Positions 8,153-42,122 of a stretch of DNA of 42,122 nt are shown one piece after another; position 1 is the first letter of the stretch, and every line of letters starts with the position of its first letter. The position numbers were made by a program, and so were the translations under genes. The stretch is from IMG/VR virus record IMGVR_UViG_2778261299_000011, one strand, 5' to 3'. This DNA comes from a virus. Its lineage: Duplodnaviria; Heunggongvirae; Uroviricota; Caudoviricetes. Below the pieces are notes generated by a model, which made no database searches, was not told the origin of the DNA, and worked only from the letters and a program-made list of their open reading frames with translations.

Positions 8153-8734
8153 ATGAACAACTCATGGTGGCAGGAACTAATGCATTTTTTCCTGCAAGGA
8201 ATGACACTTAAACAGTTGATTCATATGCTAATCATTCTGATCATATTGATTATTGTTATGCCGGTAAGCGTAAAAGAATGGATAAACCTGCATAATCCAG
8301 AAATCCTTCCTCATTACTGGATGTATTACATCCTGTTGTTTTGCGTTAGCTATGTGCTTAACGGCGTTGTTAATTCCGCTTATCACGCTGTGACTGAAAG
8401 AATTGAGGTATCCGCTGCTCAGAAGCGCAAATCTAAAGAAGAAAAATATGTGCAAGATTTGTTTGATTCATTAACTCTTGGAGAAAGAGCGTATTTGGCA
8501 TTCGCTGTAGCCGCTAATAACCAGCTACAAACGGAAAAGGGAGCTCATGAATCAATTTCATTGCTCAAAAAAGGACTCCTCGTTCGAAGGCCTCCTGCTG
8601 TTGGATATCCTGATACCGACCGTTTCGTTATCCCTGAAAGCTATAGACATGAGTGCTACATTAGGTTTGCCGGGAAGGCAGACAGCCTTATGGATGAACT
8701 TATCGCTCAGGATAAGCATGGCAAAAACAAGTAA
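8153..8734 (+). CDS. sieB: Superinfection exclusion protein B, 193 aa
   Basis: N-terminal TM segments (LIHMLIILIILIIVMPV, YWMYYILLFCVSYVL). Plus-strand orientation between ral and N and length match lambda/P22 SieB. Confidence 0.8.
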   Translation: MNNSWWQELMHFFLQGMTLKQLIHMLIILIILIIVMPVSVKEWINLHNPEILPHYWMYYILLFCVSYVLNGVVNSAYHAVTERIEVSAAQKRKSKEEKYVQDLFDSLTLGERAYLAFAVAANNQLQTEKGAHESISLLKKGLLVRRPPAVGYPDTDRFVIPESYRHECYIRFAGKADSLMDELIAQDKHGKNK

Positions 8735-15783: not shown

Positions 15784-15858
15784 GGGTCAGTCGTATAAAG
15801 GTCATTACGGAAGGCTGTTAACCTTCTTATCGTGGTTCGAGTCCACGCTGTCCCGCCA
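15784..15858 (+). tRNA. tRNA-Asn (anticodon GUU), somewhat degenerate
   Basis: Hand fold: acceptor GGGTCAG/CTGTCCC (one T-T mismatch), a 3-bp D stem, anticodon stem GAAGG/CCTTC with loop CTGTTAA, T arm CGTGG-TTCGAGT-CCACG, discriminator G and encoded CCA. Confidence 0.6.
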
Positions 15859-15863
15859 AATAT

Positions 15864-15939
15864 GCTGGTTTAGCTCCAATGGTAGAGCAGTCGCCTTGTA
15901 AGCGAATGGGTAGCGGTTCAAGTCCGTTAACCAGCACCA
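15864..15939 (+). tRNA. tRNA-Thr (anticodon UGU)
   Basis: Hand fold: perfect acceptor GCTGGTT/AACCAGC, D arm GCTC-CAATGGTA-GAGC, anticodon loop CTTGTAA, T arm AGCGG-TTCAAGT-CCGTT, discriminator A and encoded CCA. Confidence 0.85.
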
Positions 15940-17341: not shown

Positions 17342-17504
17342 AACACCCCAGCCAGATTTACCCGACCCGTTTACGTGGGGAGCTAGCCTTAACCTGAATG
17401 TTGCGTTGTTGTCAGCGTTAGCACAGTGCAACAGGGATAAGGCTGATATCAGGGCTTTTGAGAAAAACAGGGCAGCACAAACCAATGGCACGATTAAACG
17501 TTAA
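17229..17504 (+). CDS. Rz1: o-spanin Rz1 lipoprotein (overlapped architecture), 91 aa
   Basis: A +1-frame ORF inside Rz starts MIALFVSFLLAQLSGC (lipobox LSGC) and is proline-rich afterwards. It extends 163 nt beyond the Rz stop. Confidence 0.7.
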   Translation: MIALFVSFLLAQLSGCTNTRTVYVSVPVVPLPASLTDETPQPDLPDPFTWGASLNLNVALLSALAQCNRDKADIRAFEKNRAAQTNGTIKR

Positions 17505-17670
17505 AGTTATCCCACCAGACAGCGAAACGATGAACGGGATTTTTGCAGAGATTGAACGTAAATATGCGCATCAGCCGATGACGCCAAAAGTTATCGATGA
17601 AATGCAACGCGAAGCGGCGCGCCTTGTACGGCGAGCGACAAACACGAAGGTTACGTTCGTTCGGGACTGA
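17485..17670 (+). CDS. Hypothetical 61-aa protein
   Basis: ATG 17485 gives MARLNVKVIPPDSETMNGIFAEIERKYAHQPMTPKVIDEMQREAARLV... No motif recognised. It overlaps the Rz1 end. Confidence 0.4.
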   Translation: MARLNVKVIPPDSETMNGIFAEIERKYAHQPMTPKVIDEMQREAARLVRRATNTKVTFVRD

Positions 17671-17802
17671 CATTACAGAAGCTCCTTTGATAAGGGGCTT
17701 CGATAATGTCACTAAGAGGAAAAATTCATGGCAAAACCGGACTGGGAGGCCATCGAAACGGCGTACCAGTGGCGGGTGAAGTATAGGGCATCTATTTATT
17801 CA

Positions 17803-18351
17803 TCATTTGAAAAAAGAGTTGTCCGGATAGGTTTCAATAACGGTTATGTTTGAAAGACGCGAGGGGTTAACCGTGAACTCATTTTCACCAAGATAACGAC
17901 TGTGGGCATTGGGGCCAGCTAATATAGAACAGGCTGGAGCTTCAGCTCTTAACAGCAAACCTGGTGATTTGTATGCATTCAATCCACGACCAAACTTCTC
18001 GGCGACTGAAATGTCCGTTGTCCAGCAAAATCCAATGAGTCCTTTATCGAACCTGTCTTTATTTTCCCCCCGATAAAGTACAAGGCTGTCACCATCATAT
18101 GTTGGCAATAAGAGCGTTAATAGTTTGAGGAGAATTGAGTCGTCGTTGATCTTTTCACGTATAAAGGCCCCAGACTCAACCCATTGACTATGGAATGAAT
18201 TTTTCATGGCAATTGATACTGGCTTTGCGTTATCGATGCTTTTGATAAACTCAACCCATCTGTTCCGACTGTGAATGTAATCAAGAAATTTCCTCTCATC
18301 GGACACCTTCGATTGAGGGCGGTTATAAGCTGCGAAATCTTCTAACTTCAT
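17803..18351 (-). CDS. Moron protein with ADP-ribosyltransferase-like R-[ST][ST]-ExE signature, 182 aa
   Basis: ATG at 18351 is preceded by GAGGAAATT. Ordered motifs are LVLYRGEN, GFCWTTDIS and YLGENEFTVNP. It lies on the opposite strand to the flanking late genes and has lower GC (25/60 at 18061-18120). Confidence 0.6.
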   Translation of the reverse strand: MKLEDFAAYNRPQSKVSDERKFLDYIHSRNRWVEFIKSIDNAKPVSIAMKNSFHSQWVESGAFIREKINDDSILLKLLTLLLPTYDGDSLVLYRGENKDRFDKGLIGFCWTTDISVAEKFGRGLNAYKSPGLLLRAEAPACSILAGPNAHSRYLGENEFTVNPSRLSNITVIETYPDNSFFK

Positions 18352-18370
18352 AATTTCCTCAGGTATATCA

Positions 18371-18922
18371 ATGGCACTCACCGACAAGCAAGAAATGTTC
18401 TGTCGCGAGTACCTCATCGATTTAAACGCCACGCAAGCGGCTATTCGGGCGGGGTACAGCGCAAAGACAGCTAACCGTACCGCATCCGAAAACCTGTCAA
18501 AACCTGACATACAATTCAGAATCGCTGAACTGAAAGCGCAACGCAATGATCTTGTTGGTATTAATGCAGAATATGTACTTAATCGCCTTATTGAAATCGA
18601 CCAGATGGATGTGCTCGACATTCTCCTGCAAAACGGTGAGCTAAAGCCCATTAAAGACTGGCCTAAGGTATGGCGCACAACGCTATCAGGAATGGATGTC
18701 GTGGAGATGGTATCCGCAGATAGCGCCGCACTTCTGAAGAAAATCAAATGGCCTGATAAGGTTAAAAACCTTGAGTTGCTTGGGCGTCATGTTTCTGTTC
18801 AGGCGTTTAAAGACAACGTCAAAAATGAAGTGACTGGCGCTGATGGAGGACCAGTCAGAACAGAAATTACCAACTTAACGCCGGAGCAGGCTGCAGAGGC
18901 GTATAGAAAAATGATGGGCTAA
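18371..18922 (+). CDS. Terminase small subunit (P27/Terminase_2-type), 183 aa
   Basis: [52 protein letters not shown] is the hallmark N-terminus of this small-terminase family. Located directly upstream of terL. Confidence 0.85.
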
Positions 18923-38142: not shown

Positions 38143-38960
38143 TGGCAAAAAATGACTTTAAAGCATTCGCAACGGGTAAAAATGCCAATGTTATGTCGCA
38201 GGAGGAATGGGAAGCGTTGCCTGCGCTTTTATCCGGATTTACAGCAGGGAAAGCATCCAGTGCGCAAGTCAATAAGGTTATTCGGCAGGCCAGCTTTATT
38301 GCTGCAGCTCTGGCCCAGTTTGTAAGTGACAAAACGCAACGGGATGTGCTTGATAATGGTGATCTGCCCGGTTTTGTTGAATTGCTGGGATCGGGGTTTG
38401 CTGTTGAATACCTGAGCCGCAAGAATCCGTTTGGTGATATCAAATCGGATGGCACGGTGAAAACGGCTCTCGAAAACCTTGGTTTGGGAGAAGGCTCAGC
38501 ATTACCTGTTGGGGTGCCTGTTCCGTGGCCTTCAGCCACTCCGCCAACAGGCTGGTTGAAATGCAATGGTGCGGCTTTTTCTGCTGAAGAATATCCCAAA
38601 CTGGCAAAGGTTTATCCGACAAATAAATTGCCTGATTTACGTGGTGAGTTTATTCGTGGCTGGGATGATGGGCGTGGTATTGATGCTGGGCGTGCTTTAT
38701 TGAGCCTTCAGGCTGGAATGCTGGAAAAACACCGCCATATGGTTGTAGCCAACGATGGGTATGATTCAAAAGAGGAATGGGAACTGGCGGCAATCTTCAG
38801 AAAAGCATATACGCAAGGCCGGGGGCTTGATGCTGCCGATGCCGGAGGGACTCTGATTCCATCACCAACGCTACATACACGAGGGAGTATTGGTAACACA
38901 GGTGGGAGAGAAACCCGTCCACGAAATATTGCATTTAACTATATCGTGAGAGCTGCGTAA
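38142..38960 (+). CDS. Tail fibre protein (constant N-part + currently expressed variable C-part with phage tail-collar domain), 272 aa
   Basis: ATG 38142 (ATGA overlap) gives [33 protein letters not shown]. The collar-domain motif is [38 protein letters not shown]...[19 protein letters not shown]. The invertase crossover site lies inside the gene at 38467-38492. Confidence 0.85.
38467..38492 (+). repeat. Left 26-bp invertase crossover site (pix/gix-like)
   Basis: CTCTCGAAAACCTTGGTTTGGGAGAA. Its reverse complement TTCTCCCAAACCAAGGTTTTCGAGAG shares its first 14 nt with the right site. Confidence 0.75.
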
Positions 38961-39562
38961 TGGATAAAGCCGTATTAAATAGCGAACTTATTGCCACGAA
39001 GGCGGGGAATATTACCGTCTATAACTATGATGGTGAAACACGGGAATATATTTCTGAATCAACTGAATATCTTGCTGTTGGCGTCGGTATTCCCGCACAT
39101 TCGTGTTTAGATGCTCCTGGTTCATATAAGTCAGGTTATGTGTCCTGTCGAACTCTGGATTTGAGATCATGGGAATATGTGCCAGACCATCGCGGTGAAA
39201 TCGTCTATAACACCGAAACGGGGGACTCAAAAGAAATCACAGTGCCGGGAGATTACCCTGAAAAGACAACCACTATTGCTCCGTTAACACCATACGATAA
39301 GTGGGATGGTGAGAAATGGGTGACGGATACCAAAGCGCAACATAACGCAGCAGTGGAAGGGGCTGAACTGCAACGCCAGTCACTGATTGATGATGCCATG
39401 TCTTCCATTGTTCTGATTCAACTAAAATTGCAGGCCGGGCGGAAGCTGACGCAGGCAGAAACCACCCGACTTAACGCTGTGCTGGATTACATTGACGCGG
39501 TGACGGCAACAGATTCCAGCACCGCGCCGGATGTCATCTGGCCTGAACTGCCGGAGGCGTAG
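38960..39562 (+). CDS. Tail fibre assembly protein (Tfa/U), 200 aa
   Basis: ATGA-type overlap with the fibre gene. The C-terminal ...LNAVLDYIDAVTATDSSTAPDVIWPELPEA is the Tfa hallmark. Confidence 0.85.
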   Translation: MDKAVLNSELIATKAGNITVYNYDGETREYISESTEYLAVGVGIPAHSCLDAPGSYKSGYVSCRTLDLRSWEYVPDHRGEIVYNTETGDSKEITVPGDYPEKTTTIAPLTPYDKWDGEKWVTDTKAQHNAAVEGAELQRQSLIDDAMSSIVLIQLKLQAGRKLTQAETTRLNAVLDYIDAVTATDSSTAPDVIWPELPEA

Positions 39563-39977
39563 GCCATTCAATATCTGGCGCACTGGAGGTATCAACCAGT
39601 TCCAGTGCGTCCAGATAATCCAGCCACAAATTATATTGCGCCAGTTCGTCACCTTTCAGACGACCAATAGCGGCTTTACCGGGCCATTGCTTACTGTTCA
39701 TGTATTCGTTGGCCTGGTTAATTAGTAGCTGTCTTTCTGATTCAGTAATTTCAATAAGCTCTTCATGAGTAGGTGGAGGAATATCTGCCCACGCAGGCAG
39801 CCCATCATCTCCGGCAATACGGATTTTTCCTTGTGGCGGTTCAGCCATAAACTCACTGATAATATTTTGATTTACTTCCTTAGCGTCTGATAAATCCCAT
39901 CCCTCTGATTTATATTTATCAATCATATCCACAGGAAAAAAAGCATTATGCCTTGCGCTATAAACATATTCGTTCAT
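39534..39977 (-). CDS. Alternative tail fibre assembly protein (U'), 147 aa
   Basis: ATG 39977 follows AGGGTG. The C-terminal ...YNLWLDYLDALELVDTSSAPDIEWPTPP is the Tfa hallmark. Convergent with U. Confidence 0.8.
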   Translation of the reverse strand: MNEYVYSARHNAFFPVDMIDKYKSEGWDLSDAKEVNQNIISEFMAEPPQGKIRIAGDDGLPAWADIPPPTHEELIEITESERQLLINQANEYMNSKQWPGKAAIGRLKGDELAQYNLWLDYLDALELVDTSSAPDIEWPTPPAVQAR

Positions 39978-39997
39978 ATAAATCACCCTGAATAAAA

Positions 39998-40369
39998 TTA
40001 CTCACCAACAGCCCACCAACTGTAATTCATCGATACCGTGTCGCTGGTTGATGACGTTCTGTAAGCAGAATTAAAGCCGGTTAACGTTGGGCCTTCTGCA
40101 GTCATCACGAACCCTCGCCCAGCGCCTAAAGGCGCACCGCCATCACCAGAATGAGTAAGCATGGCGCAGTCCGCTTTTTTGGGGAAAGGGATGCTGAATG
40201 TAATTCTCATTGTTTGCGTCGATAATGTCGGCGTAACCGCACCACGACCATATTGCAGGATTTTCCCGTTGGGTAATTTCATCCATCCATCACCACTGGC
40301 AAAAGAGGCCATGTCCGGTATCTGATTTCCCCCTGTCCCCACATCCCGTTTTGCCGCTTCTCCCAAACC
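39998..40369 (-). CDS. Alternative tail-fibre C-terminal segment (Sv'), silent in this orientation
   Basis: An open frame with no start of its own begins within the right crossover site (…NVGLGEAAKRDVGTGGNQIPDMASF…WWAVGE). Inversion would fuse it to fibre codons 1-~115. Confidence 0.75.
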   Translation of the reverse strand, partial: GLGEAAKRDVGTGGNQIPDMASFASGDGWMKLPNGKILQYGRGAVTPTLSTQTMRITFSIPFPKKADCAMLTHSGDGGAPLGAGRGFVMTAEGPTLTGFNSAYRTSSTSDTVSMNYSWWAVGE

Positions 40370-40383
40370 AACGTTTATGAAAA
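40358..40383 (+). repeat. Right 26-bp invertase crossover site
   Basis: TTCTCCCAAACCAACGTTTATGAAAA, in inverted orientation relative to 38467-38492, with a 12-bp identical core GGTTTGGGAGAA. Confidence 0.75.
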
Positions 40384-40437
40384 TGCAGAAATAATGAGCA
40401 AATGGCATCATTCCTGCTTTTGTCAGGGGGATCTACC

Positions 40438-40546
40438 ATGCTTATTGGCTATGTACGCGTGTCAACAAATGACCAGAACACAGATCTACAACGTAATGCA
40501 CTGAACTGTGCAGGATGCGAGCTGATTTTTGAAGACAAGATAAGTA
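40438..40546 (+). pseudogene. pin: Truncated Din-family serine invertase (pin), first 36 codons only
   Basis: MLIGYVRVSTNDQNTDLQRNALNCAGCELIFEDKIS is identical, as I recall, to the e14 Pin N-terminus. Homology and GC content then break. The catalytic Ser is present, but about 150 residues, including the HTH, are missing. Confidence 0.85.
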
Positions 40547-40608
40547 GTGCTATGGGGGTTAGGCATTATAATTGGTTGTTAAAAATCAATAAGTTTTGTA
40601 TTGTTGTG

Positions 40609-41142
40609 ATGATATTACCATCATGTTACAAGGTGTGGATTTTGGCGAAGTTACTATATGTAAAACCTATAACGATAAAAAAAGCAAATGAATTTGTTTC
40701 TATTTATCATCGACACCATCGACCAACGTCAAGGAATTCGGGCAGATGGGCTATAGCTGCCTACCACATAGATTCTGATGAATTGGTTGGTGTAGCGATA
40801 GTTGGAAATCCCGTATCTGCAACGTACATGGATGGTGTGACGGCAGAGATTACACGATTATGTGTCAGTGACAAATCTCCAAAAGGAACTTGCTCCTTTC
40901 TGATTAGTCGATGTAGCACAATCTGGAAAATGATGGGAGGAGAAAAAATTATTACCTATACTCTAAGCAGTGAAACAGGCGCATCTTTAAAAGGTGCTGG
41001 GTGGCAGTTAGTTGGGACTGTACATCCTCATAATCGTTGGGCCGATAAAGCAAAGCAGGATGGAATAATTAGGGATAATTTAGAAATATATAAACTGAAG
41101 AAATTTCGTTGGGAATGTTTACTCGGGGAGGTTCTAATATGA
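40609..41142 (+). CDS. GNAT-fold-like small protein (XF1762/Mom-type pattern), about 166-177 aa; start uncertain (ATG 40609, or TTG 40642 with AAGGTG SD)
   Basis: KPITIKKANEFVSIYHRHHRP, VGVAIVGNPVS, EITRLCVSD, CSFLISRC and IITYTLSSETGASLKGAGWQ match the pattern of a small phage/prophage acyltransferase-fold family from memory. The gene is AT-rich. Confidence 0.6.
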   Translation: MILPSCYKVWILAKLLYVKPITIKKANEFVSIYHRHHRPTSRNSGRWAIAAYHIDSDELVGVAIVGNPVSATYMDGVTAEITRLCVSDKSPKGTCSFLISRCSTIWKMMGGEKIITYTLSSETGASLKGAGWQLVGTVHPHNRWADKAKQDGIIRDNLEIYKLKKFRWECLLGEVLI

Positions 41143-42122
41143 GAGTTATGGCAGCGTTTAGCTCTGATTCCAGAGAACAATATAAAGCTGATATATTCAA
41201 GGTGTTAAGTTTGCCAAAAGGTGATGTCATTCATTTTAGATACAAAAAGAAATATGTTGAGGCTTGCATTTATCAACAACGGCAAGCGATAGTTGGTAGT
41301 GATGTATTCATTTATTTTTCGCAAGGAAATACAATGAATGAAAATAAAAAATTGATCCATAAATCAATTAGGAAGGCGAAAATAATTTCGTTTGACTGGA
41401 GTGATATGACCGAACTTTATCATGTTCGGATGATTCTTGGGGATTTTATTAATGCTGAAATTTGTAATCAGGGAGATGATGGGCTTTTCTTAAAATATAT
41501 AGAATGTAACGATTCTGATTATTATAGCAACTGGAAAAGTAGGGTGGAAGAAGTTAGGTGCGCATTTCCTGATATGATGTTTTTTTCTATTGATGGTATC
41601 CTTGACTCTCTAGGAAGAAGAGTTATTCCGAAATACAACCCTCAAAGTAAAGGGTGTTTCTATGAAGTATATCATGGTGATAGGTACACTATAAATATAA
41701 AAGTAGCGAATCTTGATGGAGCTTCTAAAAAATTACTTATAAATTGTAGTCCTGATGATGTTGTGATTGCACATTGTAATCCTATAGAATCATCTGTTGA
41801 TTATGATGATATTTATATTCCACTTAATATCAAAACGTTGCCTTTTTTTAAACACTCAAACTTTTTATCATATAAAGTAATTAATGTAGAAAGTGACGGC
41901 ACTAGTGGGAATTCTAATGGTGAAATTAAAGGGGGTGGGGTGGGTAAAAATGTTGACTTTGATATGTATACAGTGGCACAAGAACTATGTCTGAGACTTA
42001 ATTTAAAAAGTGCTATTATGTTTGGATTGTTATGTTTGATGGCTTTTTTGGCAATGGTATTCGTTAGTGATAAAAATACAATGATTGTTTGGCCCTATAT
42101 TAAAATAGGTATGTCGGCTATT
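41139..42122 (+). CDS. Unknown large protein, at least 328 aa, 3'-truncated by the window end; hydrophobic helix near residue 300
   Basis: Hand translation from ATG 41139 (ATGA overlap with the previous stop) is open to the last base. Product starts MRVMAAFSSDSREQYKADIFKVLSLPKGDVIHFRYKKKYVE and includes ...AIMFGLLCLMAFLAMVFVSDKN... It is absent from the supplied ORF track. Confidence 0.65.
   Translation, partial: MRVMAAFSSDSREQYKADIFKVLSLPKGDVIHFRYKKKYVEACIYQQRQAIVGSDVFIYFSQGNTMNENKKLIHKSIRKAKIISFDWSDMTELYHVRMILGDFINAEICNQGDDGLFLKYIECNDSDYYSNWKSRVEEVRCAFPDMMFFSIDGILDSLGRRVIPKYNPQSKGCFYEVYHGDRYTINIKVANLDGASKKLLINCSPDDVVIAHCNPIESSVDYDDIYIPLNIKTLPFFKHSNFLSYKVINVESDGTSGNSNGEIKGGGVGKNVDFDMYTVAQELCLRLNLKSAIMFGLLCLMAFLAMVFVSDKNTMIVWPYIKIGMSAI

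Follow-up and report, generated by a model that had tools for sequence, protein, structure and literature searches.

A putative ADP-ribosyltransferase-like protein encoded antisense to terS in a lambdoid Escherichia coli prophage, and its family on mobile elements

The window analyzed here is the whole 42,122-nucleotide stretch of the IMG/VR virus record IMGVR_UViG_2778261299_000011, a complete lambdoid-type E. coli prophage that extends from the integrase (1-1074) to the tail-fiber region. Between its lysis genes and terS, the window carries a minus-strand open reading frame (ORF) whose product is predicted to adopt the fold of ADP-ribosyltransferases (ARTs) and keeps, in order, motifs resembling those of R-S-E enzymes of this class. 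This ORF, hereafter the ART-like gene, probably encodes a compact, cytoplasmic mono-ADP-ribosyltransferase without an immunity partner, carried as cargo by mobile elements and modifying a specific target of the host or of a rival element, a reading that we prefer to its competitors and hold to be slightly more likely than not.

The ART-like gene and its position

The gene order is holin, endolysin, Rz, Rz1 and a 61-residue ORF on the plus strand, the ART-like gene on the minus strand, and then terS, terL and portal. The ORF, its two predicted regions and the gap that separates it from terS are as follows.

17803-18351, minus strand: ART-like ORF, ATG at 18351, stop TGA at 17805-17803, 182 residues
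18091-18351, minus strand: N-terminal helical region, residues 1-87, five helices
17824-18090, minus strand: predicted ART catalytic core, residues 88-176, from the model and conservation
18352-18370, no strand: spacer of 19 nucleotides (nt) between the divergent starts, holding the ribosome-binding site of the ART-like gene, with the terS ATG at 18371

The coordinates and translation agree with the preliminary description of this DNA, which had placed a 182-residue minus-strand ORF with a Shine-Dalgarno sequence at ATG 18351, 19 nt from the terS start. The sequence GAGGAAATT lies directly 5′ of this ATG on the minus strand, and the ribosome-binding site is GAGG (18360-18357, same strand). The N-termini of most homologues match the start at ATG 18351, and a longer ORF beginning at TTG 18747 in the mechanical ORF list is unsupported. 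The product is identical to WP_000762846.1, annotated as "hypothetical protein", and the region around the gene is 99.9% identical to a prophage of enteropathogenic E. coli (EPEC) E2348/69. The lower G+C content that had been noted is also real: the earlier count of 25 of 60 nt at 18061-18120, within the ORF, is right, and the ORF as a whole has 42.3%, whereas the window has 49.0% and the neighboring genes have 47-52%. The dip is modest rather than extreme, since it lies within the lowest 10% of 549-nt windows. The gene is present or absent at a fixed slot, is oppositely oriented to its surroundings and deviates in G+C content; its position and the polymorphism of the slot accord with its earlier designation as a moron, an accessory gene that runs antisense between the lysis genes and terS.

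Conserved motifs, predicted fold and family

Three motifs follow one another in the protein: LVLYRGEN with R94 (codon 18072-18070, minus strand here and below), GFCWTTDIS with T111/T112 (T111 at 18021-18019), and YLGENEFTVNP with E156 (17886-17884) and E158 (17880-17878). The translation and the codons confirm that these R-S-E-like motifs occur in the order originally described. The first spacing, from R94 to T111/T112, is 17-18 residues, as estimated then (about 18), whereas the second, from T111/T112 to E156, had been put at about 37 and is in fact 44-45 residues.

Conservation was counted in an alignment of 79 representatives, each 25-50% identical to the query. R94 is invariant (79/79), preceded by Tyr, Phe or Trp and followed by Gly in 78 (G95), while G107 and W110 are each present in all 79. 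Position 111 is Ser or Thr throughout, whereas positions 112-113 vary, which leaves a single conserved hydroxyl residue, the first. The first glutamate of the third motif is the better kept of the two (E156 in 77/79, E158 in 74/79), and 12 of 40 closer homologues have E-x-Q instead of E-x-E; this subclade (P0029-P0032, P0034 and P0038-P0044; loci L010-L012), in which activity may be altered or lost, sits in arrays of small genes resembling integrative and conjugative elements (ICEs). Since the motifs are conserved across 79 diverse representatives, the R/S/E pattern is more than chance.

A few homologues have unusual architectures. In P0168 (433 residues), the whole module is duplicated in tandem, with one glutamate left in each copy. 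P0173, by sequence reading only, has a short ParB-like segment ahead of the ART module; no Pfam match was found in P0173, and the ParB-like PHROG matches among the 79 members are not tied to a named member. Moreover, the tblastn match to the ART-like protein is split in two in the viral contigs L044 (6001-6545) and L035 (5150-5673), which suggests that these copies are frameshifted.

The AlphaFold2 model of the protein, built from a 40-sequence alignment, has a predicted local distance difference test score (pLDDT) of 91.9 and a predicted template modeling score (pTM) of 0.84. Five helices within residues 4-81 are followed by a β-rich core with predicted strands at 90-97, 109-111, 131-138, 143-145, 158-161 and 167-175 and a helix at 114-122; the predicted core has the split β-sandwich of the ART fold. 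R94 lies within the first core strand (90-97), W110-T111 lies on strand 109-111 with the helix next, and E156-x-E158 stands at the start of strand 158-161, a placement that we take to be the R-S-E arrangement.

Structural matches of the model comprise Tpt1/KptA, TreX, TreTu, diphtheria toxin, exotoxin A, AcrIF11, PARP15 and PARP4, and further Vis, ART2.2, Certhrax, LT, C3, HopU1, XopAI, Tre1 and the NAD+ glycohydrolases (NADases) Tse6 and Tne2. Foldseek searches of the PDB returned weak matches to the same families (best E 0.015), and those of BFVD returned mostly uncharacterized phage proteins, together with DarT, ART-PolyVal and a cyanophage arginine-ART. The predicted structure, the structure searches and the conservation of the motifs thus uphold the ART-like fold with an R-S-E-type signature that had been proposed for this ORF. 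Of the two kinds of search by which that proposal was to be checked, structure searches recovered ART families, whereas sequence and profile searches returned no known ART family.

The model superposes on ARTs of the C3, Vis and ART2.2 type over 103-118 aligned residues. The N-terminal helical region had been taken for a targeting domain of about 90 residues; instead, it is conserved family-wide, with W57 and D71 in at least 72 of the 79 representatives, R65 in 68 and W32 in 57, and part of it can be superposed on the N-terminal helices of ARTs of the C3 and Vis type (112-118 aligned residues). Because of this superposition, the region probably belongs, as far as the model goes, to the enzyme itself and is no targeting domain of its own.

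The family is large and without annotation. A profile search found 1009 homologue cluster representatives (clusters at 50% identity) at E≤1e-3, 679 of them at ≤1e-10. A word-indexed search yielded 49 homologues, and in a further profile word search all entries were "hypothetical protein" and lacked Pfam domains. Two PHROG families, both of unknown function, are involved: PHROG 30882 matches the protein at 1e-95, and PHROG 4776, a sister family, is matched by 54 of the 79 members. Homologues occur in elements of Methylomonas, Pantoea, Pandoraea, Burkholderia and Acetobacter, and the identical protein occurs in EPEC E2348/69, in E. coli B/BL21 and in isolates from soil, river, seawater, poultry, pig and cattle. 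By tblastn, no homologue was detected among 50,697 phage genomes on deposit, whereas IMG/VR yielded 33 loci.

Among characterized enzymes, the R-S-E mono-ARTs C3, Vis, ART2.2, HopU1 and Tre1 resemble the ART-like protein in size (about 180-220 residues), in having helices ahead of the β-sandwich core, and in the sequence of elements: an aromatic-R-G first core strand, a second strand with [ST] and then a helix, and E-x-E on a later strand. They differ in showing no detectable sequence similarity to it and in having S-T-S where this family has W-[ST]-x; the better-kept first glutamate and the E-x-Q subclade also set the family apart, and the ART-like protein is neither secreted nor delivered and has no immunity partner. 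TreX, TreTu and Tre1 (Rhs and type VI secretion) are C-terminal domains of polymorphic toxins with an adjacent Tri immunity gene, whereas the ART-like protein is free-standing, has conserved N-terminal helices and lacks an immunity gene in 22 contexts. T4 Alt, ModA and ModB, R-S-E enzymes that act early or are injected, are likewise phage-encoded ARTs that modify host proteins and have no immunity gene (ModA and ModB have about 200 residues in the T4 record), but they are lytic-cycle genes of a virulent phage, and the ART-like gene is antisense cargo of a temperate one. AcrIF11 is described as a small single-gene anti-CRISPR ART without immunity, found on phages and plasmids (PMC12421852). It shares the single-gene, immunity-less organization and the carriage by phages and plasmids with the ART-like protein, although its 137-residue chain lacks the N-terminal helical region and a sequence relationship between the two is not shown.

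The slot upstream of terS and other genomic contexts

The head-to-head arrangement of the ART-like gene and terS, with a gap of 19-20 nt, recurs in Pantoea and metagenomic phages in which the ART homologue is 43-84% and TerS 59-78% identical. Among 5,426 complete E. coli genomes, this terS is found in 226 and the ART-like gene in 91; no K-12 strain is among the 30 of these 91 genomes that were listed, and K-12 presumably lacks the gene. The relatives without the ART-like gene (terS 93-98% identical) carry other genes at this place, always antisense and 20-26 nt from the terS ATG. The features of the slot in the window, followed by the alternative cargos of four E. coli loci, are listed below.

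18371-18922, plus strand: terS (Terminase_2 type), constant partner of the cargo slot
18372-18621, plus strand: homology to the terS remnant of P22 (P22 40745-40990), 75% identity, 95% over the first 81 nt
18518-18546, minus strand: candidate weak promoter of the ART-like gene, TTGCGT (18546-18541)-17-GATTCT (18523-18518), by homology to Ppid
17733-17775, minus strand: candidate weak terminator, hairpin and UUUU, 28 nt past the ART stop, from a minimum free energy fold
17669-17712, no strand: strong inverted repeat, near-perfect, 44 nt, between the convergent orf61 and ART-like gene
17485-17670, plus strand: orf61, small conserved ORF, 61 residues, convergent with the ART-like gene and overlapping the end of Rz1
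L055 2240-2476, antisense to terS and directly upstream of it: alternative cargo, 78-residue protein
L056 2049-2480, antisense to terS and directly upstream of it: alternative cargo, 143-residue protein
L057 2204-2476, antisense to terS and directly upstream of it: alternative cargo, hydrophobic 90-residue protein
L058 2008-2474, antisense to terS and directly upstream of it: alternative cargo, YodC/DUF2158 and DUF6953

Six unrelated alternative cargo sets were found in the slot next to the same terS. The cargo genes are mutually unrelated, and homology between cargo versions ends exactly at the terS ATG; PADLOC found no match among the four E. coli sets (L055-L058). In Cronobacter phage phiES15, which has the same terS, no antisense gene is annotated upstream of it, and in P22 and phage P6 the slot is occupied by pid, which in P22-like phages is an antisense gene abutting a decayed terS remnant. 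As judged from these comparisons, the antisense slot abutting terS is an exchangeable multi-cargo hotspot. P22 pid resembles the ART-like gene in its slot, antisense between the lysis genes and the terS start, and in the conserved terS 5′ sequence beside it, but P22 Pid is an unrelated 86-residue protein that derepresses the host dgo operon, and P22 keeps the decayed terS remnant only, whereas terS of the window is intact and functional-looking.

The first ~85 nt of terS (18371-18460) hardly differ in nucleotide sequence between modules with TerS proteins of only 59-78% identity (L004, L027, L028, L031, L033, L046 and L048), and this 5′ end is also conserved in the decayed P22 remnant. Across these alignments, such conservation exceeds what coding constraint alone explains; the segment may be a recombination anchor, an antisense 5′ untranslated region (5′UTR) and promoter region, both of these, or a packaging-related site.

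For P22 pid, the promoter, the transcription start site (nt 40,880), the −10 box and a 174-nt 5′UTR have been mapped experimentally (PMC8835761); this promoter has little activity in lysogens and works mainly in carrier-state cells. These mapped coordinates fall inside the P22 terS remnant. At the homologous position, where P22 Ppid reads TTGCTT-17-AATCCT, lies the candidate promoter of the ART-like gene, which predicts a 5′UTR of ~160 nt and is kept in all E. coli modules examined. A consensus scan around the ART-like gene detected neither a strong sigma-70 promoter nor a canonical terminator, and the terminator scan missed the candidate hairpin at 17733-17775; a promoter and a terminator of its own are putative features of the gene, as is the expression in the lysogen that had been proposed for it originally.

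The region of the inverted repeat at 17669-17712 folds better than shuffled sequences (z-score −3.85), and since there is no U-run on either side, this hairpin is not a canonical terminator. An Rfam microRNA match at the same place was rejected as chance-level (E 0.84, 19.6 bits against a gathering score of 75), and no real Rfam match was found. The neighboring orf61 is conserved in E. coli versions of the module and matches no family; it is not an obligatory partner, because it is absent from L026, where the ART homologue is 97% identical.

Beyond terS, the family occupies varied surroundings. An all-against-all comparison of neighbors at 22 loci found only the ART homologue to be shared, with terS in addition within one phage lineage. 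Homologues lie between replication or Q-like genes and the lysis cassette of high-GC, Pseudomonas-like phages, where they are co-oriented with these genes, and one lies inside a siphovirus tail module. Some adjoin integrases, one adjoins a TacAT-like pair on an Enterobacter plasmid, and one adjoins a Schlafen/AlbA_2 gene at an accessory or island position. Others stand among small unknown genes arrayed in long runs on one strand, in ICE-like elements and in Pandoraea and Burkholderia plasmids; NCBIfam and Pfam gave no names for the neighbors in the ICE-like arrays. The Pandoraea plasmid array was considered as a conjugative leading region, but, judged by IncP organization, its place downstream of tra genes and an ArdC-like gene is not the leading end, and this argument was dropped. 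In the lysis-terS interval of a Pantoea prophage, an Acb2/Tad1-hairpin-domain gene (L004 6638-6919, E 4e-19) adjoins the homologue; Acb2/Tad1 is a family of anti-CBASS and anti-Thoeris sponges.

In more than 20 contexts (phages, plasmids, ICE-like arrays and a degraded prophage), no conserved immunity, antitoxin or ADP-ribose-removing partner was found, and the precomputed Pfam lists of the neighborhoods contain no macrodomain or ARH family. The absence of an adjacent immunity-like gene, noted earlier for the window, is thereby extended by neighbor clustering to 22 loci. The identical protein also persists in E. coli B REL606, BL21 and T7 Express, whose att-lambda prophage is degraded. In REL606 (L049, 789-800 kb), this is a remnant of ~11 kb in which int, xis, Rz1, orf61, the ART-like gene, terS and terL are intact and most others are lost. 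Retention in so heavily degraded a prophage indicates that the ART-like gene is tolerated on its own.

Elsewhere in the window, tRNA-Asn(GTT) and tRNA-Thr(TGT) genes lie upstream of holin in the late region (15784-15939, plus strand). The segments 38960-41142 and 40900-42122 resemble an invertible tail-fiber segment, with two assembly genes in opposite orientation, a Gp53-like fiber C-terminus and a 246-residue ORF in which an N-terminal fragment of a resolvase is joined to a Mom-like match below threshold; beyond them comes an AT-rich end (32-35% GC).

Proposed role, alternative explanations and significance

The analysis shows the ART-like gene and its conservation, the predicted fold with the motifs placed on it, the structure of the hotspot and the lack of a partner; what we infer comprises an enzymatic activity, a target class, a promoter, a timing of expression and a biological role. 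Its R-S-E residues, R94, [ST]111 and E156-x-E158, would carry out NAD+-dependent mono-ADP-ribosyl transfer. The gene would be transcribed from a weak promoter inside terS, at the position homologous to that of the P22 pid promoter, allowing a low level of expression in lysogens and, besides, upon DNA entry or in the carrier state, while transcription of the late operon, running antisense through the gene, would oppose its expression. Covalent modification of a specific host or rival-element macromolecule would then benefit the mobile element. Protein arginine is the most likely acceptor, given the E-x-E motif, although another acceptor is possible. The protein is presumably not a general toxin, because it has no immunity partner. 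The lack of a partner, the stable retention and the co-orientation elsewhere with lytic or establishment genes lead us to favor specific host modulation or counter-defense, of the kind known from T4 Mod enzymes, AcrIF11 and Pid, over abortive-infection defense.

Several observations weigh against this reading. The ART-like protein has no Pfam match at E≤10 and no NCBIfam match, and the 79 diverse family members have no Pfam match at E≤0.01; phmmer and hmmsearch comparisons with PDB sequences gave chance-level matches only. An hhalign comparison of the family alignment (A2) with T4 ModA is in register, with Y-R-G on W-R-G and W-T...A..FA.GL on SASY...A..FASGL, but it falls short of significance (E 0.054, probability 1%), and that with ModB (E 0.11) runs over an unrelated stretch. 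That R94, T111 and E158 gather around an NAD pocket in three dimensions is a prediction, and some family members may not be transferases, because the E-x-Q subclade alters the expected position of the catalytic glutamate. The promoter inside terS, which the preliminary description had held to be necessary, is plausible by homology to the mapped pid promoter, but its hexamers are poor, matching 3/6 each and falling below the threshold of the consensus scan, and it is not kept in the most distant ART-terS modules. The choice between counter-defense and defense draws on weak associations, because the contexts are mixed. Finally, the literature search found no paper on the protein, no data from BL21 screens and no expression or biochemical data.

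Of the alternatives, the one that fares best, unlikely as we consider it, is a defense or superinfection-exclusion enzyme, in which an ART made in the lysogen would ADP-ribosylate a target of the phage or the host and so abort the infection of another phage, like the ART toxins of DarTG and CmdTAC. Antisense orientation in a late operon with signals of its own is typical of a lysogen-expressed moron; homologues occupy accessory or island sites beside integrases, a Schlafen/AlbA_2 gene and toxin-antitoxin genes; and the prophage already has one exclusion gene, a homologue of SieB (superinfection exclusion protein B) at 8153-8734 (plus strand). Against this stand the lack, in any context, of a conserved antitoxin, immunity or ADP-ribose-removing partner, the co-orientation with lytic or structural genes in other phages, and the PADLOC 2.0 results, which for the ART-like protein gave only a chance-level RT_UG26 match (E 0.024) and for four divergent homologues no match. 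The gene is, moreover, present in E. coli B/BL21, strains on which the classical T phages can grow. Among the three roles first proposed, that of a defense or abortive-infection toxin is consequently the least favored, there being no antitoxin and the gene sitting harmlessly in BL21 and REL606.

Somewhat less probable still is a protein with the ART fold that is not a protein-modifying transferase, namely an NADase, a binder or sponge of signals derived from NAD, or an enzyme that modifies nucleic acids in the manner of Tpt1, DarT or CmdT. The best structural matches include Tpt1/KptA, which acts in RNA/DNA 2′- and 5′-phosphate chemistry, and the NADases Tse6 and Tne2; one subclade has E-x-Q, and one neighbor is a nucleotide sponge of the Acb2/Tad1 type. 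The window protein, however, keeps the full R, [ST] and E-x-E set that is usual in active R-S-E transferases. The catalytic tetrad of Tpt1/KptA is Arg-His-Arg-Arg, and no conserved Arg-His pair of this kind is found among the conserved columns of the family alignment. Toxicity would also be expected of an unregulated NADase without immunity, whereas the gene is stably maintained.

A secreted virulence effector of pathogenic E. coli with eukaryotic targets, comparable to the prophage-borne type III effector ART EspJ or the phage-encoded Bacteroides ART Bxa, is highly improbable: the identical protein does occur in EPEC E2348/69, EPEC prophages carry effector genes, and the literature search listed a paper on a prophage-encoded ART fitness factor in Bacteroides (PMC11699363), but effector genes usually lie beyond the tail-fiber genes and not in the terS slot, the N-terminus has no hydrophobic signal-peptide-like stretch, and the distribution described above, over E. 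coli B/BL21, environmental and livestock isolates and the elements of other genera, led us, together with the N-terminal sequence, to reject the idea of a type III secretion effector.

Our preferred reading, a mono-ART carried as cargo, admits a bolder extension that we hold to be speculative and, taken as a whole, doubtful: the protein would be the founding member of a widespread group of immunity-less mobile-element ARTs, enzymes for establishment or counter-defense that covalently switch off a conserved component of host immunity or stress response when phage, plasmid or ICE DNA enters, in the manner of AcrIF11 and with a far broader distribution, while the promoter embedded in terS would define a general plug-in slot that expresses whichever cargo is present.

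ART-fold enzymes, phage morons and the slot itself (P22 pid) are already known, whereas a family for which no database model, name or paper was found, its breadth over mobile elements and the multi-cargo hotspot at terS are new. Because E. coli B, REL606 and BL21 carry the identical gene, deletion, overexpression and target-capture work would be straightforward, and it may interest users of BL21 that the strain encodes a putative protein-modifying enzyme. Signals of the terS slot that probably lie inside terS would extend the case of P22 pid to other phages. Single-gene mobile-element ARTs without immunity are rare and have been informative before, as with T4 Alt/Mod and AcrIF11; if active, the present family would add to the ADP-ribosyltransferases a large unannotated group of ~1,000 clusters at 50% identity, distributed over phages, plasmids and integrative elements.

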